From Deltaproteobacteria bacterium (lineage in GTDB: Bacteria; SAR324; XYD2-FULL-50-16): a stretch of 64,000 bases of DNA. This document shows, in pieces, positions 4,346 through 51,014 of this stretch. Where the stretch lies: assembly GCA_018645005.1 (NCBI GenBank), contig JABGPJ010000066.1, forward strand, positions 41,808 to 105,807, written 5' to 3'. Under the pieces are notes generated by a model, which had not been told where the DNA came from, ran no database searches, and saw only the letters and a list, made by a program, of their open reading frames with translations. Position 1 is the first letter of the stretch; every line of letters starts with the position of its first letter. Both the position numbers and the translations under genes were made by a program.

Positions 4346-5401
4346 TTGATCAGATATGCAGGAATCCGTGAAATGAATAAAATGAACATTGCTGTTGTCG
4401 GCTATGGATATTGGGGACCCAATTTAGTCCGTAATTTTTCCTGGTTGACTGAAACCCATGTAAAATATGTTTGTGATCTCGATGAAAACCGTCTGGAGAA
4501 GGTCCAGGCTCTTTTCCCCAATGTTGAGATCACGACGACCGACTATCAACAGATTCTCGATGATCCCCAAATTACAGCTGTGGCAATCGCCACTCCGGTG
4601 GGAACTCACTTTCCTTTGGCTAAAGCAGCTTTGGAAGCCGGGAAACATGTACTGGTCGAAAAACCGATGACTGATAAGGCCGAGGATGCGGCGGCGCTGA
4701 ACGCACTGGCCAGAAAAATGGATCGGATCATAATGGTGGACCATACCTTTCTCTACACTGGTGCTGTCAAAAAAATAAAAGAACTGGTTGATTCCGGGCA
4801 GATTGGGGATATTTACTATTTTGATTCGGTTCGAGTAAATCTGGGGCTGTTTCAGAACGATGTTAATGTCATCTGGGATCTTGCGCCCCATGATCTCTCC
4901 ATCATGAAATACATCATTGGGAAAAAGCCTGTCAGTGTGAGTGCAAACGGTGTCTCTCACGTTAAAAACAATCTGGAGAATATAGCATATTTGTCGGTGT
5001 TTTATGACGATTCAACTTTTGCCCATTTTCATATCAACTGGCTTTCTCCAATCAAGGTCCGGCAGATAATGATTGGTGGTTCGGAAAAAATGATCGTTTA
5101 CAACGACATGGAAAATACAGAGAAAATAAAAGTATACGATACCGGGGTGGAGCTGAACTCAGGTGACAAAGATCTCCTGTATCAGGCTCTGATTCAGTAT
5201 CGTACCGGAGATATGTACGCCCCAAAACTAGACCAGACGGAAGCGCTGAAAACAGAATGCCAGCATTTTGTCGATTGTATTCGACAGGGAAAGTCTCCGA
5301 TCAGCGATGGTGAATTCGGGTTGGAGATTGTGAAAATTCTGGAGGCAGCGCAGTCTTCCATCAAACAACAGGGAAAAAACATCTATCTGGAAGAGATATG
5401 A
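4346..5401 (+). CDS. gnnA: Gfo/Idh/MocA-family NAD-dependent oxidoreductase, probable UDP-GlcNAc 3-dehydrogenase GnnA (start may be 4373 or 4382)
   Basis: N-terminal Rossmann motif IAVVGYGYWGPN and the EKP motif typical of Gfo/Idh/MocA enzymes. It lies between lpxA and lpxB next to a DegT aminotransferase, the gnnA/gnnB arrangement described for Acidithiobacillus ferrooxidans. Confidence 0.6.
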   Translation: MIRYAGIREMNKMNIAVVGYGYWGPNLVRNFSWLTETHVKYVCDLDENRLEKVQALFPNVEITTTDYQQILDDPQITAVAIATPVGTHFPLAKAALEAGKHVLVEKPMTDKAEDAAALNALARKMDRIIMVDHTFLYTGAVKKIKELVDSGQIGDIYYFDSVRVNLGLFQNDVNVIWDLAPHDLSIMKYIIGKKPVSVSANGVSHVKNNLENIAYLSVFYDDSTFAHFHINWLSPIKVRQIMIGGSEKMIVYNDMENTEKIKVYDTGVELNSGDKDLLYQALIQYRTGDMYAPKLDQTEALKTECQHFVDCIRQGKSPISDGEFGLEIVKILEAAQSSIKQQGKNIYLEEI

Positions 5402-6909
5402 TAAAACTTCTTCTGTCACACGATCTACTGATTGAAGCACTACAGAACCCTGAAACGGCAGCGACGCAGCTCATAAAAAAATGCACGGATGATCCAGGAA
5501 TCCAGGCCTGGATTCTTGCTCATGCGGTTCAAATCTGCGCCAGCCAAGGCTTTTCAAGTGAAAAAATCGGACAACTAATCGACGGACTCGCACAAATTCC
5601 TAATAACGCACACCTCAACGAACAGGCCCTTGCGTCCCAGGTTGGCTTTGAAACCGGATTGCAGATCGCTGCGGCCAGGATGTTTAAGATTCCACGTGTG
5701 GTTGTTACCAAACCTCAAGAAGATGAAAAAGGGGTTGCTTTCATCGACTGTCGGGAGGCCCTGGATATTGACGTTTTGATGGATTCTCAGCGGGTTGATT
5801 TCCTTAATTTGAATCTTGCTCTTCATCCTATATTCAACCGTATGGATGGCTGGTTTATGGAGATCATCCAAAATACCGCTTTTGCTGGTGGTAATCACGT
5901 GGCCGAATTTGAAAAGGAATTTGCAGGTTTTTGTCAGATTCCCCATGCGGTTGGTGTCAGCAATGGAACAGACGCTCTGTTGTTTGCACTGCTTGCGATG
6001 GGGATTCAACAAGGGGATGAAATCATCACGGTTCCTAACACGTTTATCGCCACTACTGAAGCGATTTCACAGGCGGGTGCAGTTCCTGTTTTTGTGGATG
6101 TCTACCCTGATTCGTATAATATAAATACGGATTTAATCGAAGAGAAGATAACAGACAAAACCAGAGCCATTCTGCCGGTACACCTTTATGGGCAAGTTGC
6201 TGATATGGACGCTATCATGGCGATTGCTGCAAAGCATCATCTATTGGTTCTGGAAGACGCCTGTCAGGCACATGGGGCCTATTATAAGGGTAAACGGGCC
6301 GGTACTCTCGGACACGCCGGGGCTTTCAGCATGTATCCGGGAAAAAATCTGGGGGCATTTGGGGAAGCGGGATGCGTCATTACGCCTGATCCCAAAATAG
6401 CCGCAACCGTAAAGCGTTTGCGGGAACATGGGCAAAGCAAGAAGTACTATCATCTGGTAGAAGGTTATAATGGACGGATGGATAATTTACAGGCCGCTGC
6501 GTTAAGAGCCAAACTGCCCTTCCTGGATGAGTGGAATGAAAATAGGCAGAAGATAGCCCGGCTTTATCAAGAGGGACTCAGTGAGGTTCCCGAGGTGAAA
6601 CTGCCGGTAATAAACGATTATGCAAGTCATGTTTTCCATCTGTTTGTCATACTGGTTCAGGATCCCCATGAGCTTTCTGCTTATTTGAAACAGCAGGAGA
6701 TTCATACAGGGTTTCATTATCCTGTACCACTACATCTGCAGGAGGCGTATGCAGGTCGGGAGGAACAGCAGGGGAGTTATCCTGTTTCCGAACAATGTGC
6801 TGATCAACTGCTTAGCCTGCCGATATTTCCTGAATTGACTGAAAGACAGGTCAGTCGTGTCTGTGATGAGATAAAGCTGTATTACCAGCGAAGCGCTTCT
6901 ACCGGCTAA
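5398..6909 (+). CDS. gnnB: DegT/DnrJ/EryC1/StrS-family PLP aminotransferase, probable UDP-3-keto-GlcNAc transaminase GnnB, with an N-terminal extension of about 130 aa of unknown function
   Basis: Residues from about 130 to the end align by eye to the DegT family (VDFLNLNLALHPI...HVAEFEKEFAGFCQIPHAVGVSNGTDAL...YNGRMDNLQAAAL). Its start overlaps the gnnA stop (ATGA). The first 130 aa have no recognisable match. Confidence 0.6.
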   Translation: MIKLLLSHDLLIEALQNPETAATQLIKKCTDDPGIQAWILAHAVQICASQGFSSEKIGQLIDGLAQIPNNAHLNEQALASQVGFETGLQIAAARMFKIPRVVVTKPQEDEKGVAFIDCREALDIDVLMDSQRVDFLNLNLALHPIFNRMDGWFMEIIQNTAFAGGNHVAEFEKEFAGFCQIPHAVGVSNGTDALLFALLAMGIQQGDEIITVPNTFIATTEAISQAGAVPVFVDVYPDSYNINTDLIEEKITDKTRAILPVHLYGQVADMDAIMAIAAKHHLLVLEDACQAHGAYYKGKRAGTLGHAGAFSMYPGKNLGAFGEAGCVITPDPKIAATVKRLREHGQSKKYYHLVEGYNGRMDNLQAAALRAKLPFLDEWNENRQKIARLYQEGLSEVPEVKLPVINDYASHVFHLFVILVQDPHELSAYLKQQEIHTGFHYPVPLHLQEAYAGREEQQGSYPVSEQCADQLLSLPIFPELTERQVSRVCDEIKLYYQRSASTG

Positions 6910-6940
6910 TTATTAGATGCAATAGATATTCAGGCAACCT

Positions 6941-8065
6941 ATGAGCAAATTGATGGTCATTTCAGGAGAAGCGTCCGGGGATCTGCATGGTGGCAATGTC
7001 GTCCAGCGCCTGAAATTATTGCGTCCAGACCTCGAAATCATCGGAACTGGAGGGGACAATTTGGCGGCAGCCGGAGCTCGACTATTCTACCGGGTGGAGG
7101 ACCTCGCGGTGATTGGTTTTTCTGAAGTACTAAAGGTATACAAACATCTTAAAGCCGTTTTCGATGACCTGGTCAGAAAACTCGATGAAGAAAAACCGGA
7201 TGCAGTGCTGCTGATAGATTATCCGGCATTTAATCTGAAGTTTGCCGGGGAAGCAAAAAAAAGAGGTATTAAGGTCATTTTCTACATCGCGCCGCAAGTG
7301 TGGGCCTGGAAAAAAAACAGAATTCACAAAATTAAAGCGTTGGTTGACGAGCTGATCGTTCTTTTCCCCTTTGAAGTAGATTTTTTCAAAAAGGAGGGGA
7401 TGAAGACCCATTGCTTTGGGCACCCTTTACTCGATATTGCTGAGCCGACACTGGATCGCAAAGATTTCATTCAGAAATGGCAATTGAGCCCGACGAAGAA
7501 AACGATCAGTCTCCTGCCTGGAAGCCGAAAAAACGAAATTGCCAAGCACCTGCCGTTGTTATGCGAAACAGCCAAACAGATCGCGCGGGAACGGGATGAC
7601 ATCCAGTTTATCTACCCTCTGGCACCGACGGTCAGCAAGGCATCTGTTGCGTCTGATCTCAACCAGAAAAACCCCTCTATCACACTGATTGAAGCAGACA
7701 CTTACAATACGATTGCGCACTCCGATCTGGCTCTGGTCACGTCTGGCACAGCGACACTGGAAACGGCAATTCTGAAAACGCCCCTGATTATCATTTACAA
7801 ATCATCGCTGGTCACCTACTTGATTGGCAAGTACATGCTGAGGATCAAAGCGATAGGGTTGCCCAATATCATCGCAGACAGGGAGATTGTACCGGAAGAC
7901 CCACACTTTGTTTCTCCAGGTAAAATAGCAAACTGGGTTAATTACTATCTCACGAACGGTGAAGCCTACCTGAAGATTAAGCAAAATCTGATTGAGCTGA
8001 GGAGTCAACTGGGAGAAAAAGGGGCTTATCAGAAAACGGCTGCATTTATTAATACACTATTTTAA
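6941..8065 (+). CDS. lpxB: Lipid-A-disaccharide synthase LpxB
   Basis: MSKLMVISGEASGDLHGG N-terminus and GT19 family similarity throughout. Length 374 aa. Confidence 0.9.
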   Translation: MSKLMVISGEASGDLHGGNVVQRLKLLRPDLEIIGTGGDNLAAAGARLFYRVEDLAVIGFSEVLKVYKHLKAVFDDLVRKLDEEKPDAVLLIDYPAFNLKFAGEAKKRGIKVIFYIAPQVWAWKKNRIHKIKALVDELIVLFPFEVDFFKKEGMKTHCFGHPLLDIAEPTLDRKDFIQKWQLSPTKKTISLLPGSRKNEIAKHLPLLCETAKQIARERDDIQFIYPLAPTVSKASVASDLNQKNPSITLIEADTYNTIAHSDLALVTSGTATLETAILKTPLIIIYKSSLVTYLIGKYMLRIKAIGLPNIIADREIVPEDPHFVSPGKIANWVNYYLTNGEAYLKIKQNLIELRSQLGEKGAYQKTAAFINTLF

Positions 8066-8178
8066 ACCACTGAATTATCCGTTGACAGGATAAGAGCAAC
8101 CCCGGATTCAACGTACTGTTGAAGGGTGTTGCTCATCGAAAGTAAGCCAAGAATCGGACAGGAAAATAAACCCATCGC

Positions 8179-9324
8179 ATGAAAAAAGAGATTACGTTAG
8201 CAGGTAAAAATTATATCTTGATTGGAACTGCCCATATTTCCAAAGACAGTATTGAAGAAGTATCAGAGGTTATTAGCGATATTCGGCCGGATGCCGTTTG
8301 TGTAGAGTTGTGTGCAGGCCGGTATGAGTCTATCCGGAATGCAGACCATTGGAAAAGTATGGATATTGTCAAAGTGGTCAAAGAAGGAAAAGCCCCGATG
8401 TTGATGATGAATCTGATTCTATCGGCGTTTCAAAAGAAAATGGGTGATAAACTGGGAGTCAAACCCGGGGCAGAAATGGTCAAGGCAATTCAGATTGCAG
8501 AAGAGACCGGCAGTGAAATTGTGCTGGCTGATCGGGATATCACGATCACATTTAAAAGGGCCTGGGGCATTCTATCATTCTGGGAAAAGATCAAACTCTT
8601 TGGTCAGATTTTTGTCAGTGTCTTTGAAACGCCGGATATTTCAGAAGATGAAGTTGAAAGTCTGAAAGAAGGTGATATGTTGACGGAAGCGATTGATATG
8701 ATGGCAAAGGAACTGCCTGGGATAAAATCTGTCCTCATTGATGAAAGAGACCGGTTTCAGGCAGCGAAGATCCTGGAAGCAAAAGGAGAATCAATTGTTG
8801 CGGTTGTTGGCGCCGGACATATTCCAGGAATTATTCATCACATGGAAAATCCAGGGGACATTTCCGAATTGGAAACCACGCCTCCACCCGGGAAAACGGG
8901 GAAAATTCTGAAGTGGGGAATTCCTTTGGGAATACTTGCAATTATTGCCTATGGCTTTTTTGGAATGAATACGGATGTCAGCCTGGAAATGCTAAAGCGC
9001 TGGGTCCTGGCAAACGGGATTCTGTCAGCGTTAGGAGCGTTATTGGCCGGCGGCCATCTCTTGACAGTTTTGGTGGCCTTTGTCGCCGCGCCGATCACCT
9101 CGCTCAATCCAACCATTGCCGCGGGATGGGTCTCAGGTTTGACGGAAGCCTGGATTCGAAAACCAAAAGTTGAAGACTTCGAAAACCTGCCGGTGGACAT
9201 TACCTCAGTTCGCGGATTTCGGAAAAATGAAATCACCAGAATTTTACTGGTGGTCGTTTTGAGCAATCTGGGCAGCACAATCGGGACTTTTATCGGGATC
9301 CCCTTGATTACGTCTTTACTGTGA
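8179..9324 (+). CDS. TraB/GumN-family protein with C-terminal transmembrane segments
   Basis: ITLAGKNYILIGTAHISKDS...AVCVELC motif of the TraB/PrgY/GumN family. Hydrophobic C-terminal third. Confidence 0.65.
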   Translation: MKKEITLAGKNYILIGTAHISKDSIEEVSEVISDIRPDAVCVELCAGRYESIRNADHWKSMDIVKVVKEGKAPMLMMNLILSAFQKKMGDKLGVKPGAEMVKAIQIAEETGSEIVLADRDITITFKRAWGILSFWEKIKLFGQIFVSVFETPDISEDEVESLKEGDMLTEAIDMMAKELPGIKSVLIDERDRFQAAKILEAKGESIVAVVGAGHIPGIIHHMENPGDISELETTPPPGKTGKILKWGIPLGILAIIAYGFFGMNTDVSLEMLKRWVLANGILSALGALLAGGHLLTVLVAFVAAPITSLNPTIAAGWVSGLTEAWIRKPKVEDFENLPVDITSVRGFRKNEITRILLVVVLSNLGSTIGTFIGIPLITSLL

Positions 9325-9403
9325 TGTGTATCCGGACCCGTCGGGAATTTTTGTAAACCGGTTTTATAAAGACATACCGTGCTTATTGGATATATAGAAG
9401 GTA

Positions 9404-9510
9404 TTAAGGGTTGGCTCAAGAATTACTTGGCATTCTGCCTGCAAAATGTCCTGTCTTTACGAGACTTTTACGGACAGATTATGCCAAGTTATTTTTGTAC
9501 GATCCCTAAG
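9404..9510. repeat. 107-bp intergenic repeat, copy 1 of 3
   Basis: Near-identical 107-bp sequences at 9404-9510, 21122-21228 and 24735-24841, all in the same orientation. They run from TTAAGGG to CCCTAAG, with an internal imperfect inverted repeat AATTACTTGGCAT...ATGCCAAGTTATT. Confidence 0.85.
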
Positions 9511-9535
9511 TGCAAAAAAATGACAGAAATGGGTT

Positions 9536-9773
9536 CAGCAATGTCCGGTTAGGTTTTTGCAGTTCAAAAGCTGAATGATAAAACCCGTCTCTACACATAA
9601 GGATTTAAAGATTTTCTAAGTTTGCTTCACGAAAAACCGCCAAACTCGCTCGTGCTTTGCTCAAACATGGCTCATTTTCGCTACGCTAAACTAAGAAAAT
9701 CTAATAAATCCTTATCAGCGCGATCCAGGCTTCATCATTCAGCTTTTTGCAAAAACCTAACCGGACATTGCTG
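9536..9773. mobile_element. MITE-like non-autonomous element, long form, with 9-bp target-site duplication
   Basis: Terminal inverted repeats CAGCAATGTCCGGTTAGGTTTTTGCA (9536-9561) and their reverse complement (9748-9773). Flanked by direct repeats AAATGGGTT at 9527-9535 and 9774-9782. The internal region of about 185 bp is non-coding. Confidence 0.7.
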
Positions 9774-9840
9774 AAATGGGTTAGATTGAAGATGACAGTA
9801 CGATATTTTAAAAACAACAAACCTGTTTATTCTCTCAGGA

Positions 9841-10209
9841 GTGACGATGGATAGTGAAAAGACGATCTTAAACAATTTTCTACCGCAACTGAAAAGTTTT
9901 GTTAAATCGGAAACGGTTTTTGGAGAACCATACAACATCGGCGAAGTGACGATGATCCCGGTTAATTCTGTGAAAGTCGGATTCGGTTTTGGTTCGGGGG
10001 ATACAAAGACAATTGACAGTTCCGCTGGTGGCGGTGGTGTTTTGCTGACACCGGTCGCATTTATTGTTGTTAAGGGCGAAGACGTTTCCATTCACAATTT
10101 AAGCGCCGGTACGATTGAAAATGTACTGGAAAAAGTTCCTGAAGCTCTGGATAAGTTTATTTCTATATTTCAAAAATTGCAGAAAAAGAATAAAAAGACG
10201 GACGAATGA
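9841..10209 (+). CDS. GerW/YtfJ-family protein (sporulation protein YtfJ-like)
   Basis: VTMIPVNSVKVGFGFGSGD...SSAGGGGVLLTPVAFIVVKGEDVSIHNL matches the remembered YtfJ/GerW core (VSKVGFGFxxGG...GGGxxxTPxAFLxV). Its stop overlaps the next start (ATGA). Confidence 0.55.
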   Translation: MTMDSEKTILNNFLPQLKSFVKSETVFGEPYNIGEVTMIPVNSVKVGFGFGSGDTKTIDSSAGGGGVLLTPVAFIVVKGEDVSIHNLSAGTIENVLEKVPEALDKFISIFQKLQKKNKKTDE

Positions 10210-10817
10210 TTTTTTTATACGGTTTTCTCTTGGCAATCGGGGTTCTGCTGATTGTTATTCTGAGCATCCCTGTTAAAGTTCGTTTGGAATCGAATCTCGT
10301 ATTTCTGGTTCAGTGGGTTTTTCTGACTGTCAGGATTATCGTTGAGCAAAATAACGTCCGAACAGAACTGCAACTATTCAACAAAACAATAGAGAGCCGG
10401 AAAAAAGCCAAACAGAAACCGGTCACTAAACAAAAAAAGGCCAAAAAGAAAAAACCGAAAAAAAAGGTTCCATTCTCATTTTTAAAAGATACCCTGCAGG
10501 ATGCTGCTATTAAAAAAGTTATATACCAGTCTCTTCATTTAGTCCTGCGCTGTCTTTTCGCAATTAAGATCCGATTTTTGAAATGGAATATCGGTTTAGC
10601 AGACTACTACTGGCAGGGAATTATCTATGGTGTTGTCAGCGGATTACCCAATACCAAACGATGGCAAATCCACGGAAATTTTGATGAGGTCAACGATTTT
10701 CTACTGATTATACAAATATCGATCTGGCGAGTTCTATCTGCAATCGCCATTTTTCTATTCTTCTTTCCTTATTTCAGGACATTACGAATTTACATGCGGT
10801 TCCGAGCGGCAACTTGA
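10206..10817 (+). CDS. Small membrane protein with a lysine-rich linker (possibly DUF2953/YtfI-like)
   Basis: N-terminal transmembrane helix (FLYGFLLAIGVLLIVILSI), a KKAKQKPVTKQKKAKKKKPKKK stretch and a hydrophobic C-terminus. In Bacillus, ytfJ is paired with ytfI (DUF2953). The assignment is tentative. Confidence 0.4.
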   Translation: MIFLYGFLLAIGVLLIVILSIPVKVRLESNLVFLVQWVFLTVRIIVEQNNVRTELQLFNKTIESRKKAKQKPVTKQKKAKKKKPKKKVPFSFLKDTLQDAAIKKVIYQSLHLVLRCLFAIKIRFLKWNIGLADYYWQGIIYGVVSGLPNTKRWQIHGNFDEVNDFLLIIQISIWRVLSAIAIFLFFFPYFRTLRIYMRFRAAT

Positions 10818-13800
10818 ATCGGGAAACAGTGAAAAATCCGAAAAGAATCAGCTTTAAAAGCAAAGGACTTGAACTGATACAGGTCTGCGGGCCTTACGCA
10901 GAACTCTATTTCGACTGGAAGCAGATACCGCCTCTTGACCTGAGCAAAAGTTATTACCTGGTCGAAATCTCACCTGACTCGTTGATTCTGCCCCTTGAAT
11001 ATGCCAGACCCAACTCGGACGGGCCGCTTCATTTCTGCCTGAAAACGGGGGTCGAATATCAGCTGAGGCTCCTTGCGGTCCCACTCCCCGCATTTTCGAT
11101 TGAATCTGATCTCGATCCACCTCCTCAATTGGAATTCATTCCCCAACATGAAAATTTGCATAAACTGATCTGGGGAAATGTCGATGTGGAGGCACTAAGT
11201 CAGTCTTGCAACAGCCATCATGTTGAAATTTACCAGGAGGGAATCTTATCCCAGCAATGGGCTCTACAACCGCTTATCTCTTGTGAACTGGTTGGAAGAC
11301 CGGCGGTCATTGAAATTCGCTGCGGCTCTGGTGAGCGGTTGTTACTGATTAACACCAATCTGCAGCAAATGACCTGTGCCGGATCCCTTCCCTTTACCCT
11401 CAAGAAGCAACCGGTTCGACTGAGTCTTTCAACTGCTATCCATCCGGTTCCGGGTTGGCGTGTCAGGGTGGATTTGCCTGGGTCTTTTCAGATGCGGAAA
11501 ATATGGCAGGAATCATTTCTAACTGAGTTTAGCACGTCAGACCCGGCTCATATTATTGGCTGCTTCAGATTTTATGAAAACGGAAAACAGGTTCTCGACA
11601 TCAGGCAGTGGGGATTTTCGACACATATTCAAAACCATCTGATTGACCAGATCCAATTACAGGAGTGGAAGCTCAAAAAGAAAAAGCGGGTTCATCATCT
11701 GAAACTTCAACTTCAGGTCACTTCGGCCCATCGAGAGCTCTATAAATTTGTCCTGCTCGAAAAACAGCTTGCAGGAAATATAAATGTCGAAACGGTTGGG
11801 TTCTCCGAAGATGAGATTGAATCTGCTGAACAGAATTTGTTTAAAAACCAGCGGCATGTCGTCTGGGAGCAAGCCTTTTTTGAGCTGGTACTTTGGTTCA
11901 AGGTGGATGGTCATGACTGGCAGGAATTTCAAAGGGATATCGCCCATTCTCTCCGCTGGGACTATGTCCCCTCAGAATCAGCAACTGAATGCTTTTGCGA
12001 GTGGGTACTCTTCGATCTGAACCAGCCGGATCGATTGGTGACGGTGCTATCTTCAGGTCTGGAGAAACGAATACAATGGCCTGACCGGGTCTATCTGAGA
12101 CCGTTCAATACAGAACGACTGTTTGCCTGTTGGGACCTGGAAAAACGCAACATTGAAAACAGGATCCGGTCAGACTGGGGCGTCGTTCTTTCCCAAGTTG
12201 GATTTTACCTTAAAGTGCATGAGGAGCATCTTGGTACGAGAATCCGGCGTGCAGACCTGGATTGTCACTTGATTGATGTTTTCTCTGCTCAAAAAAATCT
12301 CTATTTCGATGTTGAACCCAATAAGTGTTTTTCGGTTGAGATCGTCGCGCGTTTTGAACAGCAAGAGATTTCACTGACACCGGTATCCACATCTGTCGTT
12401 ACCCCCAGAAAACCGGATCAGTCATCTCTCAGCTACCCCCACTACAGCAAATCAGAAAGCCAGGGGTATCATTGCACCCAGCGGCAAGTCCGTCATCTGC
12501 AGGGAACAGATGCTCAAAACAGAGCCAACGTTATGCTGCACCTGCATATGCACTCCCCAAACCTCTATCGGGCTGATCCTTTTCGGGAGAGCTTTCTGAG
12601 AGACGGCACCTGGCCGATTGTCACCAACGAAGGGGCTGAAGTTCATAATCCGCCAGGGGAATGGGTTTTGAGGAACTGTCTAGATTCTTGGCTACCGATT
12701 CTGAGAGTTTTGCGTAGTCTGGCTGCGGAATCGGTCGATTATCAGCTCAGTCTCGATATATCACCTCCCGTGGCCTATATGATAAGTAGTCCCTGGTTCA
12801 AGGACTACATGTCCCGTTATTTATTGCGGATGAAAGCATATGTGAGCGGACAGATTGCCTTGATGAAATTCCGCAACGATTCACCTGATTTTATTTATGC
12901 AGCGGAGCGCTGTCTGATCGATTTGGATGCGATTGAATCTTTTTACATTTCTGATCTGGATAAAAACATCATCGGTGCTTTCCGTGAACTTGAACTGCAA
13001 GGGTTCGTTGAAATATCAACCTGTACAGCAACGCATGGAATGCCTGCCGAGCTGGAGAGTCTTCCGGATGCACTTGACAGTCAGATTACACTGGCTGCCA
13101 GAAGCCATCATCGAATTTTTGGAGATCGGCCCAAAGGGATCTGGCTTGCTGAAAACTCTTTTTTCCCTGGCGTTGAACAGTTGCTTTCCAGAGAAGCGTT
13201 GGGATTTTTCTTTGTTGAAGCAGAAGCTATTTTATGTGGGTCGCACAAACTCTCCGAAGAGGAGTTCAGTCCGGTTATCCTCCCTCTGAATCAGGTAGTC
13301 GCATTTGGCCGCAGCCGTTTGGGCAGAGCCCAGGTCTGGGATGCTGACATTGGCTATGCCGGTCATCCGGATTTTCGAGAATATCATTTTCGGCACTTAG
13401 GGTTGCCGGTCAAGCGGATCACTTCGAAAACAACGGATGACAAACAGCCGTATCACCCGGACCAGGCAGAAAAGACGGCTCGGAAGCTGGCACAGGATTT
13501 TCATCACAAACTGAGTGAGAAAGCCTTCGAATTAAGCAGCCGCAGCTTTAAATCGATTCCCCTGATCAGCTGTACCTATGACGCCGAGCTATTCGGTCAT
13601 CATTGGTGGGAAGGACCTGTTTTTCTGGAAGAGCTTTTAAGAGAGTTTTATCGCAAAGCGGGTGCAATCGGATTGACGACACCATCGCATTATCTCGCAG
13701 GGAATCCCACTCTACCCGAGGTGGTGCCAAATCCATCCACCTGGGGGCATGAAGCGGTGCATGTAAAGTGGACGGATCCGAAAGTTGCCTGGACGTTCAG

Positions 13801-14131
13801 AGAATTAGAAAGAGCGGATCAGATTTTGAAAACCTATTTAGCACTGGGTCAGGAAAACAGGCTGACAGATTTTCAAATACGGATTGTTGAGCAGATGGAG
13901 GCGGAATTCATCCGTGCGCAAAGCTCGGATTTGACTTTTGTCATCATGGCCGGAGATTTTGAGGAGGATATGCAGAGAGAAATTTTGAAGTACCTGGACT
14001 ACTTTTATCGTCTCAAATCCCTGATTGACAATAATGTTGAGGACGAACAATTTCTGTTGTTCCGGCAGTACGAAAATAATATGTTTCCTGAAATTGCCGG
14101 ATGCTATGCCATCCGTCTGCAACCCACTTAA
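10814..14131 (+). CDS. 1105-aa fusion protein: uncharacterised N-terminal region of about 560 aa plus a C-terminal GH57 alpha-glucan-active domain
   Basis: The C-terminal half carries GH57 hallmarks: HLHMHSPNLY (like LHAHLPY), GIWLAENSFFPG (nucleophile Glu region) and CTYDAELFGHHWWEG (acid/base Asp region). The TTG start overlaps the upstream stop (TTGA). No recognisable family for residues 1-560. Confidence 0.65.
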   Translation: MNRETVKNPKRISFKSKGLELIQVCGPYAELYFDWKQIPPLDLSKSYYLVEISPDSLILPLEYARPNSDGPLHFCLKTGVEYQLRLLAVPLPAFSIESDLDPPPQLEFIPQHENLHKLIWGNVDVEALSQSCNSHHVEIYQEGILSQQWALQPLISCELVGRPAVIEIRCGSGERLLLINTNLQQMTCAGSLPFTLKKQPVRLSLSTAIHPVPGWRVRVDLPGSFQMRKIWQESFLTEFSTSDPAHIIGCFRFYENGKQVLDIRQWGFSTHIQNHLIDQIQLQEWKLKKKKRVHHLKLQLQVTSAHRELYKFVLLEKQLAGNINVETVGFSEDEIESAEQNLFKNQRHVVWEQAFFELVLWFKVDGHDWQEFQRDIAHSLRWDYVPSESATECFCEWVLFDLNQPDRLVTVLSSGLEKRIQWPDRVYLRPFNTERLFACWDLEKRNIENRIRSDWGVVLSQVGFYLKVHEEHLGTRIRRADLDCHLIDVFSAQKNLYFDVEPNKCFSVEIVARFEQQEISLTPVSTSVVTPRKPDQSSLSYPHYSKSESQGYHCTQRQVRHLQGTDAQNRANVMLHLHMHSPNLYRADPFRESFLRDGTWPIVTNEGAEVHNPPGEWVLRNCLDSWLPILRVLRSLAAESVDYQLSLDISPPVAYMISSPWFKDYMSRYLLRMKAYVSGQIALMKFRNDSPDFIYAAERCLIDLDAIESFYISDLDKNIIGAFRELELQGFVEISTCTATHGMPAELESLPDALDSQITLAARSHHRIFGDRPKGIWLAENSFFPGVEQLLSREALGFFFVEAEAILCGSHKLSEEEFSPVILPLNQVVAFGRSRLGRAQVWDADIGYAGHPDFREYHFRHLGLPVKRITSKTTDDKQPYHPDQAEKTARKLAQDFHHKLSEKAFELSSRSFKSIPLISCTYDAELFGHHWWEGPVFLEELLREFYRKAGAIGLTTPSHYLAGNPTLPEVVPNPSTWGHEAVHVKWTDPKVAWTFRELERADQILKTYLALGQENRLTDFQIRIVEQMEAEFIRAQSSDLTFVIMAGDFEEDMQREILKYLDYFYRLKSLIDNNVEDEQFLLFRQYENNMFPEIAGCYAIRLQPT

Positions 14132-14157
14132 TCCACCTGACATAATCCAGATTTATT

Positions 14158-14210
14158 CAGCAATGTCCGGTTTGGTTTTTGTTTTGCAAAAACCTAACCG
14201 GTCATTGCTG
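14158..14210. mobile_element. MITE-like element, minimal 53-bp form (terminal inverted repeats only), with 9-bp target-site duplication
   Basis: CAGCAATGTCCGGTTTGGTTTTTG-TTT-GCAAAAACCTAACCGGTCATTGCTG, the same termini as the 9536-9773 element. Flanked by direct repeats AGATTTATT at 14149-14157 and 14211-14219. Begins 27 bp after the stop of the GH57 fusion gene. Confidence 0.7.
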
Positions 14211-14289
14211 AGATTTATTCAAAGATAGACCTTAAAAGGAGGCTACAACATCAGTAGTCTTTTACGTACTCAAATAGACAAGGAGTTTC

Positions 14290-14844
14290 ATGATGACAGA
14301 AGAGATCACTAAAATCGGTATCGTGACTGTGAGCGATAGGGCTTTTCGCGGTGAGTATGAAGATAAAGGCGGACCCGCCATCCGGGACTGGCTGCAAAGC
14401 GCCTTGAAAAGTGAGTGGGAAGGGATCGGAAAAATTGTTCCGGACGAACAGGATAGTATCGAAACGGCACTGCGGAGCCTGGTTGACCAGGAAAAATGTC
14501 ATCTGATTCTAACGACCGGTGGGACCGGTCCGGCAAAAAGGGATGTGACGCCAGATGCGACTCTTTGCATTGCGGATAAGGTGATGGATGGATTTGGAGA
14601 ACGAATGCGTTCTATCAGTTTGAAATATGTTCCCACGGCCATTCTCTCCCGGCAGGTGGGTGTTATTCGCAAGCAGTCTCTGATTGTAAATCTACCTGGT
14701 CAACCCAAAGCCATTAAGGAGACTCTGGATGAACTTTTCGAAGCGATTCCTTACTGCATTGAGTTGTTAGAGGGGCCTGTGCTGGAAACAAACGAAGAAA
14801 TCGTCACGGCTTTCAGACCCAAATCTGCAAAAAACAAAAAGTAA
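14290..14844 (+). CDS. mogA: Molybdenum cofactor biosynthesis protein MogA/MoaB family
   Basis: IGIVTVSDRAFRGEYEDKGGPAI...LILTTGGTGPAKRDVTPDAT is a MoCF_biosynth domain signature. Length 184 aa. Confidence 0.8.
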   Translation: MMTEEITKIGIVTVSDRAFRGEYEDKGGPAIRDWLQSALKSEWEGIGKIVPDEQDSIETALRSLVDQEKCHLILTTGGTGPAKRDVTPDATLCIADKVMDGFGERMRSISLKYVPTAILSRQVGVIRKQSLIVNLPGQPKAIKETLDELFEAIPYCIELLEGPVLETNEEIVTAFRPKSAKNKK

Positions 14845-15160
14845 GATCTACCCTTCTTCTGAAGAAATATTCATATTTATCTGAAATCATATCATATTGA
14901 TTTCGGGATGAAAGCCCTTATTAAATGATAAGGATCAAACTTTATATGATTAGAATATACAAAATGAACCTTGCCGTTATAAAATTAAAGGATATTTTGT
15001 AAATGGAGAAGATCTGTTTTGATGGGGTTCCCGCAAAGCGATAATGACTTGGTATAAATGGGAGTTGGGTTATTGAAATTAATGATGACCCATTTCCAAT
15101 GACAAGTCGAGATACCTTTTCTGTTATTTTGTACGATTAACCACAAGACAAAGAAAAATT

Positions 15161-16240
15161 ATGGATTCTATTGAACAGAAAATAAGGGAAACACTGCAAC
15201 AGATCCCTTTCAGTAACAACGGCGGGAATATTTTGGACAGCGGCGTTGTCTATTCGCTAGAACTTAAAGGTGAAACCGCCAATGTTGTGCTTGTCATCGG
15301 TGAAGAAAATCAGTCAATCAAGGACGAAACAGCTGCGAAGGTAGAGCAGGGGTTGAAATCCGTTGAGGGCATCAGTGAAGTGGGAGTTAAAGTGGTGAGC
15401 TCCCAGGCAGAGATCGAGGCGCAACAACAGCCGGCTTCTGGAGAAAATCCGGCACCACCGGAGCAGGCAAACTATCTTCAGGAATATGCAAACGTTATTC
15501 TGGTCGCCAGTGGCAAAGGCGGAGTTGGAAAATCTACGGTGGCAATCAATCTGGCCCTGGCCCTCAAAGCACTGGGGAAAACCGTTTCTGTGTTGGACGC
15601 CGATGTCTATGGCCCCTCCATTCCTATCATGCTTGGAAAGCGGGACGAACCATTGCAGGTGGAAGGAGAGAAGGTTAAGCCGTTGAATCAGTTTGGTATT
15701 GATTTCATGTCTGTGGGCAATATGGTCAAAGAAGATCAGGCACTAATCTGGAGAGGGCCCATGGCTCATCAGGTGATCCAGCAAATGCTCCGTGATGCAG
15801 CCTGGCCGGGGGGAGATTATATGATTGTTGATCTACCACCGGGAACAGGGGACGTTCAACTCTCTCTCTCCCAGATGGTAGCAGCCACAGGTGCCGTTGT
15901 TGTTTGTACGCCACAAGATGTAGCGCTGCTGGATGCGAGGAAAGCGATTGCCATGTTTACCAAGGTCAATATCCCTGTTCTGGGTATGATTGAAAACATG
16001 AGTGCTTTTGTCTGTCCTAAATGTGGTGCAGAGACCCCGATTTTTGCAAAAGGCGGCACCGAGCGTGAGAGCTCCGCTCAGGAAGTAGCCTATATCGGTG
16101 GTGTTCCAATTGAAATGGATATCCGACTGGGATCCGACAATGGTGACCCCATCGTACACGCCAGTCCAAATTCAGGCAGTGCAAAAATTTTCATGGAAAT
16201 GGCAGCTAAACTGGACCAGATAGTGACGGAGGCGGGTTAA
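15161..16240 (+). CDS. apbC: Mrp/NBP35/ApbC-family iron-sulfur cluster carrier ATPase
   Basis: N-terminal DUF59-like region. Deviant Walker A ILVASGKGGVGKST. CxxC motif (CPKC) in the C-terminal half. Confidence 0.85.
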   Translation: MDSIEQKIRETLQQIPFSNNGGNILDSGVVYSLELKGETANVVLVIGEENQSIKDETAAKVEQGLKSVEGISEVGVKVVSSQAEIEAQQQPASGENPAPPEQANYLQEYANVILVASGKGGVGKSTVAINLALALKALGKTVSVLDADVYGPSIPIMLGKRDEPLQVEGEKVKPLNQFGIDFMSVGNMVKEDQALIWRGPMAHQVIQQMLRDAAWPGGDYMIVDLPPGTGDVQLSLSQMVAATGAVVVCTPQDVALLDARKAIAMFTKVNIPVLGMIENMSAFVCPKCGAETPIFAKGGTERESSAQEVAYIGGVPIEMDIRLGSDNGDPIVHASPNSGSAKIFMEMAAKLDQIVTEAG

Positions 16241-43899: not shown

Positions 43900-45870
43900 A
43901 TGGAACCCAAAGTTAATAATTTTGAACATATTGAAAAGCCGGAGATCGTCGTCCATGAGACCGATCTTCTGTTGATCGGTGGTGGTATGGCAGCCTGTGG
44001 TACTGCATATGAAGCAGACAAATGGGCCAGCCCCCAGGGTATTAGAGTTACTATGGTTGATAAAGCAGCAGTTGATAGAAGTGGTGCTGTGGCCATGGGA
44101 CTTTCTGCAATCAATACGTATGTTGGCGAAAACAATGCTGCTGACTTCGTTAAGTACGTTCGACAGGACTTGATGGGTATTACCCGTGAAGACCTTGTTT
44201 ATGACCTGGCTCGCTGGGTTGATGATTCTGTTCATCTCTTTGAAGACTGGGGACTGCCCGTCTGGAAGAAAGGTGATGACAATGAATCTCTGGACGGACA
44301 TCAGGCTGCTAAAGCCGGCAAGCCTTCCCTGCGTGAAGGTGGAAAGCCAGTTCGTTCTGGTAAATGGCAGATCATGATCAACGGTGAATCCTACAAAGTG
44401 ATCGTTGGTGAAGCTGGAAAAGCTGGTCTGGAAGCAAACAGAGTTGCAACAGGTGTTGAGCAGAACCTTTTTGAGCGTGTTTTCATCATCAAAGTCCTGA
44501 ATGATAAAGATGATCCTACAAAAGTAGCTGGTGCAGTCGGTTTTAGCGTCAGGGAAAACAAGCTTTATATCTTTAAGTGCAAAACAGCACTTCTTGGCTG
44601 TGGTGGCTGTGTGAACTTCTTTAGAGGTCGTGCTACAGCTGAAGGTCAAGGTCGTGCATGGTTTCCTGTCTGGAACTCTGGCTCTAACTACGCCATGGGT
44701 GCTGAGGCTGGTGCTGAACTGGTCCTGATGGAAAATCGTTTCGTCCCTGCCCGTTTCAAGGATGGTTATGGTCCTGTAGGTGCTTGGTTTCTGCTTTTTA
44801 AAGCGAAGGCTACCAACGCACTGGGCGAAGATTACTGCGTGACAAACGCTGATGAAGCCAGAAAGTATTACGGCAAATATGTTGATGCGATCGGTACCTG
44901 TATGCGGAACCACATGATGATCATCGACATGAAAGCTGGTAAAGGTCCAATCAAGATTCATACTGATGTTGCTCTGCAAACACTGGGTGAAACTCTGGAC
45001 AAAAAAGCCATGAAGCATCTGGAAGCAGAAGCTTGGGAAGATTTCCTGGATATGTCAATATCTCAGGCTGGTGTATGGGCTGCTAACAACATGGCGCCTG
45101 AAAAAGTACCGTCTGAATTGATGCCTTCTGAGCCTTATATGTTGGGTTCACACGCTGGTTGCGCTGGCCTTTGGGTTAGTGGCCCTGGCGATTTCGGTCC
45201 TGCGGATTATTTCTGGGGATACAACAGAATGACCACCGTTAAAGGTCTGTTTACAGCTGGTGACGGTGCTGGTGCTTCCGGTCACAAGTTCTCTTCCGGT
45301 TCGCATGCTGAAGGTCGTGTAGCTGGAAAATCCATGGTTGCTTACTGCATGGATAATCCTGATATGCCTGCTTTCGCTGAAACAGAAGACGAATTGGCTG
45401 CTGAAGTATTCTTGCCAATGGAAACCTATGCCAAGTTCAGTGGTTATACCACTGATCCTGACATCAACCCCGAGTACATCCGTCCGGTTATGGTGCAGCA
45501 ACGTCTGCAGAAGATCATGGACGAGTATGTGGGTGGCACAAGTACTTACTACATGACCAGTGGAACCATGCTGACTGAAGGACTGAGCTACCTGGAAATG
45601 TTGAAAGAAGATGAAGTGCATATGGCTGCTGAGGATCTTCATGAACTGCTGAGAGCTTGGGAAAATCATCACAGAATTGTTGCTGCTGAAGCTCATGCAC
45701 AGCACATTCTGTTTAGAGAAGAAACTCGTTATCCTGGCTATTACTATCGTGGCGATTTTCTGGCTATTGATGATGAAAACTGGAAGTGTTTCACAAACTC
45801 AACCTATGATAAGAACACTAGAGAATTTAAAGTTTTCAAGCGTGATTATCATCAGATCATCCCTGAGTAA
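43900..45870 (+). CDS. aprA: Adenylylsulfate (APS) reductase alpha subunit
   Basis: FAD-binding LLLIGGGMAACG. Length 656 aa. Global similarity to AprA, including the C-terminal RYPGYYYR region. Immediately follows aprB. Confidence 0.95.
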   Translation: MEPKVNNFEHIEKPEIVVHETDLLLIGGGMAACGTAYEADKWASPQGIRVTMVDKAAVDRSGAVAMGLSAINTYVGENNAADFVKYVRQDLMGITREDLVYDLARWVDDSVHLFEDWGLPVWKKGDDNESLDGHQAAKAGKPSLREGGKPVRSGKWQIMINGESYKVIVGEAGKAGLEANRVATGVEQNLFERVFIIKVLNDKDDPTKVAGAVGFSVRENKLYIFKCKTALLGCGGCVNFFRGRATAEGQGRAWFPVWNSGSNYAMGAEAGAELVLMENRFVPARFKDGYGPVGAWFLLFKAKATNALGEDYCVTNADEARKYYGKYVDAIGTCMRNHMMIIDMKAGKGPIKIHTDVALQTLGETLDKKAMKHLEAEAWEDFLDMSISQAGVWAANNMAPEKVPSELMPSEPYMLGSHAGCAGLWVSGPGDFGPADYFWGYNRMTTVKGLFTAGDGAGASGHKFSSGSHAEGRVAGKSMVAYCMDNPDMPAFAETEDELAAEVFLPMETYAKFSGYTTDPDINPEYIRPVMVQQRLQKIMDEYVGGTSTYYMTSGTMLTEGLSYLEMLKEDEVHMAAEDLHELLRAWENHHRIVAAEAHAQHILFREETRYPGYYYRGDFLAIDDENWKCFTNSTYDKNTREFKVFKRDYHQIIPE

Positions 45871-45932
45871 TCCAGAGCCATCTGGTCTGGTATCTGCTGC
45901 GTAAGCTGCAGGTACCAGTTGTGTGAAAGACG

Positions 45933-45980
45933 ACAGAGTGGTGTCTTAGGAAAAACTTCGATGCCACTCTGTTTTTTTTA
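45933..45980 (+). terminator. Rho-independent terminator-like hairpin after aprA
   Basis: Stem ACAGAGTGG...CCACTCTGT followed by TTTTTTTT at 45972-45979. Read-through into qmoABC remains possible. Confidence 0.5.
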
Positions 45981-46119
45981 ATGTATGAGACGATCACCTC
46001 ATCAGATTCAATCCGGAAGTAAATATTTTAGTTCCAAACCGGTAAGACAGGTTTTAACACACAAAGCGAAAGAATTATTCACAATATTTAACTATCCGAT
46101 CCAACTACAAGGGAATTGA

Positions 46120-47373
46120 ATGGCAGAACAAAAAGGAAAGATATTAGTAATCGGTGGTGGAATCAGTGGTGTTTCTACAGCACTGGAAGCAGCCGAGGTC
46201 GGTTATGACGTAATTCTGGTTGAAAAAAATCCTTCCCTAGGAGGTCGAGTTTCCAGGTTTTATCAATATTTCCCAAAACTATGCCCTCCCCTTTGCGGAC
46301 TGGAAATCAACTACAAAAGACTGAAGCCGAACCCATATATACAAACACTCACAAACTCAGAAGTCGAGTCGATTTCCGGAGAACCTGGGAAATATCAGGT
46401 TAAAATCACGACAAATCCAACTTTCGTGAATGAGAAATGCGTCATTTGCGATAAATGTACGGAAGTTTGTCCATCGGAAAGAGAAAGTGAGCACAATTAC
46501 GGTTTGGATAAAACCAAAGCGATTTTTATACCGCATAAGATGGCCTATCCAGCTCGATTTACTATCGATAGGGACGCCTGCGATCCGTCATGCTCAAAAT
46601 GTGTTGAAGCATGCGAATACGATGCAATTGATCTGCAGATGCAACCCAAAACAACCGATATCGAAGTGGCAGCTATCGTTTATGCAACTGGATGGAAACC
46701 TTACGATGCCAATAAAATTGACAATCTTGGATTCGGGAAAGTTGAAAATGTGATCAACAACGTGATGATGGAGCGGATCGCTCATGGTCAAGGCCCCACT
46801 CAAGGCCAACTCCTGCGTCCGTCGGATCAGAAAAAAGCGGATTCGATCGCTTTCGTACAGTGTGCCGGGTCCAGGGATGAAAATCACCTGCCCTATTGTT
46901 CCGCTGTTTGCTGCCTGGCCTCATTGAAACAGGCCCGCTACGCAAGACTGGCGAATCCGGATGCAAAAATTTATATTTTCTACATTGATATTCGCTCACC
47001 TGGTAAATACGAAGATTTTGCGACTGAAATTCAAAAGGATGAGAACATCATCATGGTCAAAGGGAAAGTTGCCAAAGTGACCCAGGGCCAGGGCGGGAAT
47101 GTTGTTGTAGAAGCGGAAGATATCCTGAACGGCGGAAAAGTCAGCCTGGAAGTGGATATGGTTGTTTTGGCAACTGGAATGGAGTCCAGCATGAAGGGGG
47201 CAAATTTGCCGGATGTGGTTCAACTGGATGAAAACGGTTTTGTTGCACCAAATTTACAAAATCACGGGATCCTGTCCGCAGGAGTGGCAAAATTCCCAGG
47301 CGATGTTAACAGTTCTATTCAAGATTCAACCGGAGCAGCTTTAAAAGCGATTCAAACTGTAGTGGGGAATTAA
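46120..47373 (+). CDS. qmoA: Quinone-interacting membrane-bound oxidoreductase subunit A (HdrA-like flavoprotein)
   Basis: ILVIGGGISGVSTALEAAEVGYDVILVEK FAD motif and HdrA-like Cys clusters. Directly downstream of aprBA. Confidence 0.9.
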   Translation: MAEQKGKILVIGGGISGVSTALEAAEVGYDVILVEKNPSLGGRVSRFYQYFPKLCPPLCGLEINYKRLKPNPYIQTLTNSEVESISGEPGKYQVKITTNPTFVNEKCVICDKCTEVCPSERESEHNYGLDKTKAIFIPHKMAYPARFTIDRDACDPSCSKCVEACEYDAIDLQMQPKTTDIEVAAIVYATGWKPYDANKIDNLGFGKVENVINNVMMERIAHGQGPTQGQLLRPSDQKKADSIAFVQCAGSRDENHLPYCSAVCCLASLKQARYARLANPDAKIYIFYIDIRSPGKYEDFATEIQKDENIIMVKGKVAKVTQGQGGNVVVEAEDILNGGKVSLEVDMVVLATGMESSMKGANLPDVVQLDENGFVAPNLQNHGILSAGVAKFPGDVNSSIQDSTGAALKAIQTVVGN

Positions 47374-47377
47374 AAAT

Positions 47378-49534: not shown

Positions 49535-49705
49535 CCCGTGAACATTTTGAATTTTTGATTGAACATTCACTGTCATTTTGACCAATTCCAGTTTGTGTCA
49601 AAATGACATCTGTTATCTGACAATCTGTGGAACGTTAGTGATTTATTGGATAGTGTCTATATCCTGAGAAGATTGTCGAATACCAAATAATTGGAGGTTT
49701 TTCGA

Positions 49706-50914: not shown

Positions 50915-51014
50915 CAGTTTGCAGGTTTTGTAGTCTTTGTTGATCAATCTGTCACATCTGCCGCGATTCCTTTCGCGATAGATTTTTTTGAATAAAAACT
51001 GGGAGATACAGAAT

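Follow-up and report, generated by a model that had tools for sequence, protein, structure and literature searches.

A YtfJ/DUF2953 gene pair and a DUF4912-GH57 enzyme gene lying side by side in a SAR324-type bacterium

Enzymes of glycoside hydrolase family 57 (GH57) share five conserved regions by definition, of which region III supplies the nucleophile (Glu) and region IV the acid/base catalyst (Asp); in GH57 branching enzymes the cleft is covered by a flexible loop that in most cases has a Tyr at its tip (PMC9291813). Among about 2,500 GH57 branching-enzyme homologs, Xiang et al. found 92% to be devoid of both this loop and the beta5-beta6 strands; the tested members of this loop-less and strand-less class showed very low or no branching, and participation in pathways not yet identified was proposed (PMC9291813). 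Bax et al. observed higher alpha-1,4-transglycosylation when the loop was absent (PMC10346327). For the Bacillus sporulation protein GerW (YtfJ), a dedicated study found that it is not needed for germination and that its role remains to be determined (PMC4366231). Members of both families are encoded by three consecutive genes on the plus strand of a 64,000-nucleotide stretch (hereafter the window) of contig JABGPJ010000066.1 (assembly GCA_018645005.1, positions 41,808 to 105,807), which derives from a bacterium recorded as Deltaproteobacteria and placed in the SAR324 lineage. Here we describe these three genes, their counterparts elsewhere and the relationship between them.

The three genes encode, in this order, a soluble YtfJ-family protein (gene 1), a membrane protein of the DUF2953 type (gene 2) and a large cytoplasmic protein in which an array of beta-sandwich domains precedes a GH57 enzyme (gene 3) (Table 1). 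The original prediction, made from the sequence of the window, took them for one membrane-associated glucan-remodelling system of a novel kind. Our analysis does not support this proposal. With moderate confidence, we read the cluster as two independent modules, a YtfJ/YtfI-type membrane pair and a GH57 enzyme with an accessory array, which stand side by side in a lineage of the Lambdaproteobacteria/SAR324 type. The reading is based on the occurrence of DUF4912-GH57 loci without YtfJ and DUF2953, the occurrence of YtfJ/DUF2953 loci without GH57, a junction between genes 2 and 3 that is variable and sometimes interrupted by insertions, and flanking genes that are equally conserved in order. Within this genome, the three genes are probably co-transcribed.

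Table 1. Features of the three-gene cluster and of its downstream flank (window coordinates).
Feature	Position	Strand	Basis
Gene 1, soluble YtfJ-family protein, 120 amino acids	9847..10209	+	Pfam Spore_YtfJ; mechanical open reading frame from GTG 9841
Gene 2, divergent DUF2953 (YtfI-like) membrane protein, 203 amino acids	10206..10817	+	Profile search and hhalign
Gene 2, N-terminal hydrophobic segment, residues about 1-29, probable membrane anchor	10206..10292	+	Kyte-Doolittle 19-residue window, maximum 2.97
Gene 2, lysine-rich linker, residues 61-105, 17 K in 45 residues	10386..10520	+	Composition
Gene 2, C-terminal hydrophobic segment, residues 164-190	10695..10775	+	Kyte-Doolittle maximum 2.23
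Gene 3, cytoplasmic multidomain GH57 protein, 1105 amino acids	10814..14131 (alternative start GTG 10829)	+	Homologs, AlphaFold2 model
Gene 3, D1-D4, residues about 10-421, four predicted beta-sandwich domains, no family assignment	10841..12076	+	Model, Foldseek, Pfam
Gene 3, D5, residues 422-536, DUF4912 domain	12077..12421	+	hhalign; sub-threshold Pfam
Gene 3, linker, residues 537-571	12422..12526	+	Local model confidence; conserved motifs
Gene 3, GH57 branching-enzyme-like half, catalytic barrel and helical BE_C	12527..14131	+	Pfam, PDB sequence matches, Foldseek
Gene 3, Glu780 codon, predicted catalytic nucleophile, region III GIWLAENSF	13151..13153	+	Alignment to the WL(P/A)E Glu of four GH57 branching enzymes
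Gene 3, Asp923 codon, predicted acid/base catalyst, region IV YDAELFGHHWW	13580..13582	+	Alignment to the Asp of D(A/T)ELFGHWW
Strong hairpin, 26 nucleotides after the gene 3 stop, arms of the multi-copy palindromic element	14157..14213	+	Minimum free energy of 14132-14240, -39.1 kcal/mol, z -7.0

The product of gene 1 matched the Pfam family Spore_YtfJ (PF09579) with 56.1 bits, above the gathering threshold (GA) of 25, over profile positions 4-81 of 81. With the NCBIfam GerW equivalog (TIGR02874) it scored only 44.9 bits, under the cut-off of 116.3. By these profile scores gene 1 is classed as a member of the Spore_YtfJ family and not as an ortholog of the Bacillus sporulation protein GerW; of the earlier remark that it resembles YtfJ/GerW, the family membership stands but orthology does not. 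The protein contains no hydrophobic segment, and no sequence-related solved structure was found for it. The host lineage is not known to sporulate, and the host encodes LpxA and LpxB of the lipid A pathway.

Gene 2 remained silent in Pfam and NCBIfam scans, and DUF2953 was unmatched in 10 of 10 orthologs even at E <= 10. The profile methods, however, did detect this family. A profile of 10 orthologs, searched against a database of 5.8 billion sequences, recovered six PF11167 proteins, P0048 with an E-value of 5e-8 and five others with E-values between 1.5e-3 and 5.7e-3, and the hhalign comparison of gene 2 with the DUF2953 alignment gave a probability of 99.0% (E 3.3e-18) over 194 aligned columns, covering the full length. 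An N-terminal anchor and a lysine-rich linker are common to gene 2 and DUF2953 proteins. The N-terminal hydrophobic segment is kept across the ortholog alignment and the 'FPY' motif of the C-terminal hydrophobic segment is conserved. The possibility that gene 2 falls outside DUF2953, as the silence of Pfam might suggest, was rejected, and gene 2 is assigned, from profile comparison, as a divergent DUF2953 (YtfI-like) protein that is detectable only by such methods. Both parts of the original prediction for this gene, a small lysine-rich membrane protein and a guess at DUF2953, were borne out, the latter by the profile search and hhalign and not by a direct Pfam match.

Since gene 1 belongs to Spore_YtfJ and gene 2 to DUF2953, the two genes form a YtfI/YtfJ pair in reversed order. 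In B. subtilis, ytfI and ytfJ are adjacent. The likeness to the Firmicute DUF2953/YtfI-YtfJ pair extends to the same two families lying next to each other on the same strand, with a soluble YtfJ protein and a DUF2953 protein that carries an N-terminal anchor and the lysine-rich linker. Differences are that YtfJ comes first here, that a lipid A pathway of the LpxA/LpxB type is present in the host, that the GerW equivalog score is far below its cut-off and that gene 2 has diverged beyond the reach of the Pfam model. A same-strand YtfJ-family partner was found next to gene 2 at every related locus as well as in the window. At their junction in 10 lineage genomes, genes 1 and 2 share an ATGA overlap in seven and a GTGATG overlap in one, and lie 2-3 nucleotides apart in two; the tight junction predicted for these two genes is thus kept in 10 of 10 genomes measured, which supports co-translation of a functional pair. 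Under the two-module reading, the pair represents a non-sporulating counterpart of YtfI/YtfJ, in which a soluble YtfJ protein joins a DUF2953 protein made of an N-terminal membrane anchor, the lysine-rich linker and a C-terminal domain with the second hydrophobic segment, and the overlapping frames would provide both proteins in fixed proportion for one membrane-attached complex on the cytoplasmic side.

The pair also occurs without GH57. In a Firmicute-like context (L021), the order is ScpA-ScpB-DUF2953-YtfJ-DacB, with no GH57, and in Ilyobacter polytropus (Fusobacterium) a weakly DUF2953-like protein of 201 amino acids is encoded directly upstream of an annotated GerW-family protein, again with no GH57 there. 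A plasmid collection yielded only three YtfJ matches; because one of these, a Bacillus record, has no DUF2953 open reading frame beside ytfJ, the YtfJ/DUF2953 pair is common but not universal.

For gene 3, 25 full-length homologs with 52-100% identity were found. The AlphaFold2 model of the full-length protein has a mean predicted local distance difference test score (pLDDT) of 81.8 and a predicted template-modelling score (pTM) of 0.83, and neither a hydrophobic segment nor a signal-like N-terminus was detected in gene 3. The N-terminal half, about 560 amino acids described earlier as unrecognisable, was modelled separately, as had been suggested. The model of residues 1-571 (pLDDT 83.9) consists of five beta-sandwich domains, D1 to D5, and a linker; the linker at residues 537-571 has a pLDDT of <50 in this N-terminal-only model and of about 75-77 in the full-length model. 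In a Foldseek search against the PDB, only generic FN3/Ig-like tandem arrays were retrieved with the N-terminal array, and Pfam gave no carbohydrate-binding module (e.g. CBM20, CBM48) for the window protein (E <= 0.1) or for 13 homologs (E <= 0.01). An origin of the five domains by internal duplication was rejected, as hhalign gave a probability of <=3.1% for all pairs. Except for D5, no family could be assigned. With the Pfam model DUF4912 (PF16258), D5 scored 22.7-23.3 bits against a GA of 29.4, and four of the 13 family members matched, all sub-threshold; the match spans residues 424-534 of gene 3. In hhalign, D5 aligned with the DUF4912 regions of four distant proteins (P0064-P0067), which themselves score 34.9-43.5 bits, above GA, with 98.2% probability and an E-value of 4.7e-14. 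On this alignment, D5 is assigned to DUF4912, so that the description of the N-terminal half as unrecognisable holds for D1-D4 but not for residues 422-536. A weak relationship links D2 with the N-terminal regions of the distant DUF4912-GH57 proteins (hhalign 84%, E 7.7e-6). A full-text search of the literature for DUF4912 returned passing mentions only.

The distant proteins came from an exhaustive search with a hidden Markov model of the N-terminal half over 1.84 billion representative proteins; a word-indexed search gave only 2 proteins. Only 13 proteins were recovered, most of them members or fragments of the same narrow family. The four distant ones are a stand-alone DUF4912 protein (P0064) and three proteins carrying DUF4912 and GH57, P0065 and P0066 (about 1020 amino acids) and P0067 (783 amino acids, on a short contig). 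By BLASTP, gene 3 is collinear with the distant fusions in the order DUF4912-linker-GH57, with 26-31% identity over about 670 residues. The gene for P0064 (L022) is located immediately upstream of a separate GH57 gene of 530 amino acids, and the locus of the fused P0066 (L019) has the same neighbourhood, with a PseudoU_synth_2 gene upstream; L019 and L022 represent a natural fusion/split pair of DUF4912-GH57. These proteins and the split pair resemble gene 3 in the collinear arrangement, in the weakly shared D2 and in overall length (about 1020 amino acids). They differ in that D1, D3 and D4 of gene 3 have no detectable counterpart in them and in that neither YtfJ nor DUF2953 was found in the three distant DUF4912-GH57 loci, L016, L019 and L022. 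In P0065 (L016, 6001-9060), the nucleophile Glu is kept but Pro and Thr stand at the positions of Asp923 and Glu925 (APTTLFGHRWY against YDAELFGHHWW), and P0065 may be a catalytically dead relative.

Because the DUF4912-containing module is fused to or adjacent to GH57 in other lineages, there is good evidence that it works with this GH57 clade. The five-domain array ending in DUF4912 would be a dedicated accessory module of the clade, as other lineages encode it either in fusion or as the gene immediately upstream, and it may hold or position the glucan substrate or mediate assembly. DUF4912 thus accompanies GH57 elsewhere, and the operon partners of gene 3 are absent beside its distant relatives, a distribution that speaks largely against a novel system.

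The C-terminal half of gene 3 matched Pfam Glyco_hydro_57 (PF03065; 53.6 bits, GA 21.2) and, at residues 1018-1094, BE_C (PF09210; 32.1 bits, GA 25). Sequence matches in the PDB were 2b5d, 5wu7, 3n8t, 1ufa and 3p0b, with E-values between 1e-28 and 1e-47, and the Foldseek comparison of the full-length model with GH57 branching enzymes gave target template-modelling (TM) scores of 0.79-0.85 with root-mean-square deviations of 3.8-4.7 A. All five GH57 regions are present, HLHMHSP at residue 576, GFVEISTCTATH at 730, GIWLAENSF at 775, YDAELFGHHWW at 922 and RAQSSDLTF at 1034, and the five motifs align to their counterparts in 2b5d, 5wu7, 3n8t and 1ufa. GIWLAENSF is translated from 13136-13162 and YDAELFGHHWW from 13577-13609. 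Glu780 and Asp923 are invariant in 22 homologs. The catalytic motifs noticed at the outset are therefore retained on proper alignment, and the GH57 half is probably an active enzyme.

The best sequence match is the Thermotoga maritima enzyme AmyC/TmGBE (2b5d; E 4e-46 to 4e-47, fold TM 0.83), which has the same catalytic Glu and Asp and, like gene 3, is without the flexible loop and the beta5-beta6 strands (PMC9291813). Unlike gene 3, which has 571 extra residues, TmGBE (528 amino acids) has no N-terminal extension, and the identity between the two is only about 23%; conserved region V reads SSDLTF in gene 3 and SSDWAF in TmGBE. With TK1436 (3n8t), PH1386 (5wu7) and TT1467 (1ufa/3p0b), gene 3 shares the three-domain architecture including BE_C, the catalytic dyad, the five regions and a TM of 0.79-0.85. 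In contrast to gene 3, however, these enzymes carry the loop and the beta5-beta6 insert that have been linked to branching. A gap of 15-17 residues was found in the alignment of gene 3 with 5wu7, 3n8t and 1ufa, opposite the beta5-beta6 insert and directly after the nucleophile motif, and the flexible loop region of gene 3 is about 10 residues shorter than those of TK1436 and PH1386 (loop sequences taken from Table 2 of PMC9291813). From the nucleophile to the loop region, gene 3 aligns gap-free to the loop-less 2b5d. Gene 3, the second module, would be a cytoplasmic, catalytically competent GH57 retaining alpha-glucan enzyme of the branching-enzyme-like clade, in the loop-less and strand-less class typified by the T. 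maritima enzyme.

Within the lineage, the N-terminal module was found in ten species-level genomes, whose records are named Candidatus Lambdaproteobacteria, 'Deltaproteobacteria' metagenome-assembled genome or unclassified bacteria; other homologs are named SAR324. The order TraB-YtfJ-DUF2953-GH57 is present in nine of these loci, six of which, like the window, also have LpxB upstream of TraB; the remaining one (L010), on a short contig, shows genes 2 and 3 only. MogA follows the cluster in seven loci and then Mrp in six, giving the wider order LpxB-TraB ... MogA-Mrp-TGT. Since this flanking housekeeping order is equally kept, the adjacency of the three genes is no more conserved than its surroundings. 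The three genes are adjacent in most lineage genomes, but not beside the distant DUF4912-GH57 relatives.

Unlike that of genes 1 and 2, the gene 2/gene 3 junction is variable, beginning with overlaps of 4 nucleotides. Among the ten genomes, the two genes overlap in four, are separated by 10-24 nucleotides in four, by 126 nucleotides in one and by 2 kb in one (L011); a further locus (L143) contains the triad with a gap of 22 nucleotides between genes 2 and 3. The insertion in L011 carries a nucleotidyltransferase and HEPN-like pair (4568-5316, minus strand) on the strand opposite to the cluster. In L144 and L145, LpxB-TraB-YtfJ-DUF2953 is followed by a nucleotidyltransferase/HEPN-type toxin-antitoxin pair, a Peptidase_C14/PEGA/FGE-sulfatase (caspase-like) protein, an HRDC protein and a reverse transcriptase (5774-10211), and no gene 3 was detected within 5 kb after gene 2, where these mobile or defence-like genes are found instead. 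Identity across relatives is 21-69% for gene 2, 38-68% for the N-terminal half of gene 3 and 53-87% for housekeeping genes; gene 2 and the N-terminal half of gene 3 evolve much faster than their neighbours. In PADLOC, neither genes 1 and 2 nor the N-terminal part of gene 3 matched any defence system.

The three genes might instead specify one membrane-associated alpha-glucan-remodelling machine, with the DUF2953 protein as anchor, YtfJ as adaptor and the GH57 enzyme recruited to the inner face of the membrane. The genes are tightly packed on the same strand, their adjacency is found in the window and nine further lineage genomes or contigs, genes 2 and 3 overlap in four genomes and lie 10-24 nucleotides apart in five others, no internal terminator stands out, and the long beta-sandwich array could offer a docking surface. 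We nevertheless consider such a machine unlikely: each module is found without the other elsewhere, the junction is interrupted in L011 by the toxin-antitoxin insertion of 2 kb and in L144/L145 by an insertion of at least 5 kb, and conservation of LpxB-TraB ... MogA-Mrp-TGT renders the adjacency unspecific to the three genes. The more particular proposal that the YtfJ/DUF2953 pair tethers or regulates a very large cytoplasmic alpha-glucan transglycosylase in this lineage is less probable still. Several points weigh against the two-module reading. Of the 12 contexts visible downstream of gene 2, 10 retain the order YtfJ, DUF2953, GH57, which persists where the neighbouring housekeeping proteins are only 53-60% identical, with genes 2 and 3 overlapping in four genomes. 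Promoter and terminator scans gave no enrichment over shuffled sequences, and no signal stood out where gene 2 meets gene 3. Distant contexts are few, with three loci for DUF4912-GH57 and two or three for YtfJ; the case for independence comes solely from distribution, and the activity class of the GH57 enzyme is deduced from two missing structural elements. On balance we retain two modules, whose adjacency we ascribe to the gene order of this lineage rather than to any demonstrated shared role.

Gene 3 itself might be a glycogen branching enzyme, a GH57-type substitute for GlgB in classical GlgC/GlgA synthesis, with N-terminal domains that tune chain length or granule binding. Its closest solved and curated relatives are indeed GH57 glycogen branching enzymes, BE_C is present and the catalytic dyad is intact. 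Such a role is nonetheless doubtful, as gene 3 has neither the flexible loop nor the beta5-beta6 strands, an absence linked to very low or no branching (PMC9291813), the scores with the NCBIfam branching-enzyme equivalogs are far below the cut-offs (NF041133, 179.8 against 1000; NF041566, 147.1 against 920), and no glycogen synthesis gene was found among 20 other long open reading frames of the window scanned with Pfam or among the called genes of related loci. For the missing elements, the published data on loop-less members and the low equivalog scores, we treat gene 3 as branching-enzyme-like; an alpha-1,4-transglycosylase or a hydrolase that branches weakly is more likely than a glycogen branching enzyme of the classical type. 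It is extremely improbable that gene 3 is an artefact of assembly or gene calling that joined a DUF4912 protein to a GH57 enzyme. One relative, in L005 (630-3913), is called as two proteins of 587 (P0026) and 483 (GH57) amino acids, 68 nucleotides apart, and a truly split arrangement exists in L022; the L005 split, however, comes from a contig of low coverage (5.68x according to its name) and could be either a frameshift artefact or real, the frame of the window is uninterrupted, and at least 22 independent full-length homologs of 1078-1108 amino acids, from different assemblies, have one open frame with conserved linker motifs.

The three open reading frames were read on the plus strand as originally predicted (9841-10209, 10206-10817 and 10814-14131), with ATGA at 10206-10209 and TTGA at 10814-10817 both present in the sequence. 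They are not chance open reading frames, because conserved homologs exist for all three. Gene 1 most likely starts at ATG 9847 rather than at GTG 9841, since AGGAG at 9837-9841 precedes ATG 9847 by five bases, the gene caller gave a product of 120 amino acids and all relatives begin at an ATG aligned with 9847. The start of gene 3 is ambiguous, TTG 10814 or GTG 10829; in one relative (L006) the frame opens late and only the equivalent of GTG 10829 is usable as a gene 3 start. The overlap of genes 1 and 2 is therefore confirmed, while that of genes 2 and 3 depends on the start and would be an 11-nucleotide gap with GTG 10829.

Directly upstream of gene 1 lies a gene for a TraB/PrgY/GumN-family protein with C-terminal hydrophobic segments (8179-9324). 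The same gene directly precedes gene 1, at a distance of 54-516 bp, in every related genome in which this stretch can be seen, but it does not occur in the YtfJ contexts of other lineages (L021 and Ilyobacter polytropus). The spacer of 516 bp in the window is unusually long because a palindromic element is inserted there. This element brackets the cluster, with one copy upstream (9534-9775) and one downstream (14157-14213). In the upstream copy, perfect inverted arms of 28 nucleotides, TTCAGCAATGTCCGGTTAGGTTTTTGCA, enclose nested inverted repeats in a hairpin of about 242 nucleotides (minimum free energy -106.5 kcal/mol, z -11.3), and in the downstream copy the same arms form a compact hairpin of 57 nucleotides, which could end the transcript. 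The 26-mer of the arm was found in at least 118 metagenome stretches, and full-length copies with 70-99% identity and an arm spacing of 208-212 nucleotides were present in 54 of those loci. The element looks like a multi-copy sequence of the miniature inverted-repeat transposable element (MITE) or repetitive extragenic palindrome (REP) type. Relatives have no copy of it at their syntenic loci. The inverted repeats were also considered as borders of a mobile cassette, but this was rejected because the element is multi-copy in many unrelated contexts and is missing from those syntenic loci. No credible Rfam match was found in 8000-15500.

The G+C content is 0.40 for gene 1, 0.38 for gene 2, 0.47-0.48 for gene 3 and 0.46-0.50 for the flanking genes; the low value of genes 1 and 2 is due in part to the AAA/AAG-rich lysine linker. 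Elsewhere in the window (43900-52280), a dissimilatory sulfur gene set is encoded, including an AprA-like flavoprotein, QmoA-, QmoB- and QmoC-like proteins and ATP sulfurylase (sat). This set probably prompted the earlier label of the host as a 'probable Gram-negative sulfate reducer'; the aprA-like, qmoABC-like and sat genes are indeed present, and going by the names of homologs the host is an organism of the Lambdaproteobacteria/SAR324 type.

The families of this cluster are already catalogued and uncharacterised, and the locus represents not a new kind of system but a lineage-specific variant, the value of which is that of a pointer for biochemistry rather than a surprise. For one loop-less GH57 clade, which always comes with a DUF4912 beta-sandwich module, either fused or neighbouring, the module is a concrete partner to test. 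The presence of the YtfJ/DUF2953 pair in organisms with lipid A genes and, in weaker form, in a Fusobacterium suggests that the pair arose before sporulation or independently of it, which bears on the function of GerW. Should the pair after all tether or regulate the GH57 enzyme, this would offer a first clue to what the GerW/YtfJ and YtfI families do, and likewise to the role of those GH57 'branching enzymes', the majority, that have no loop.

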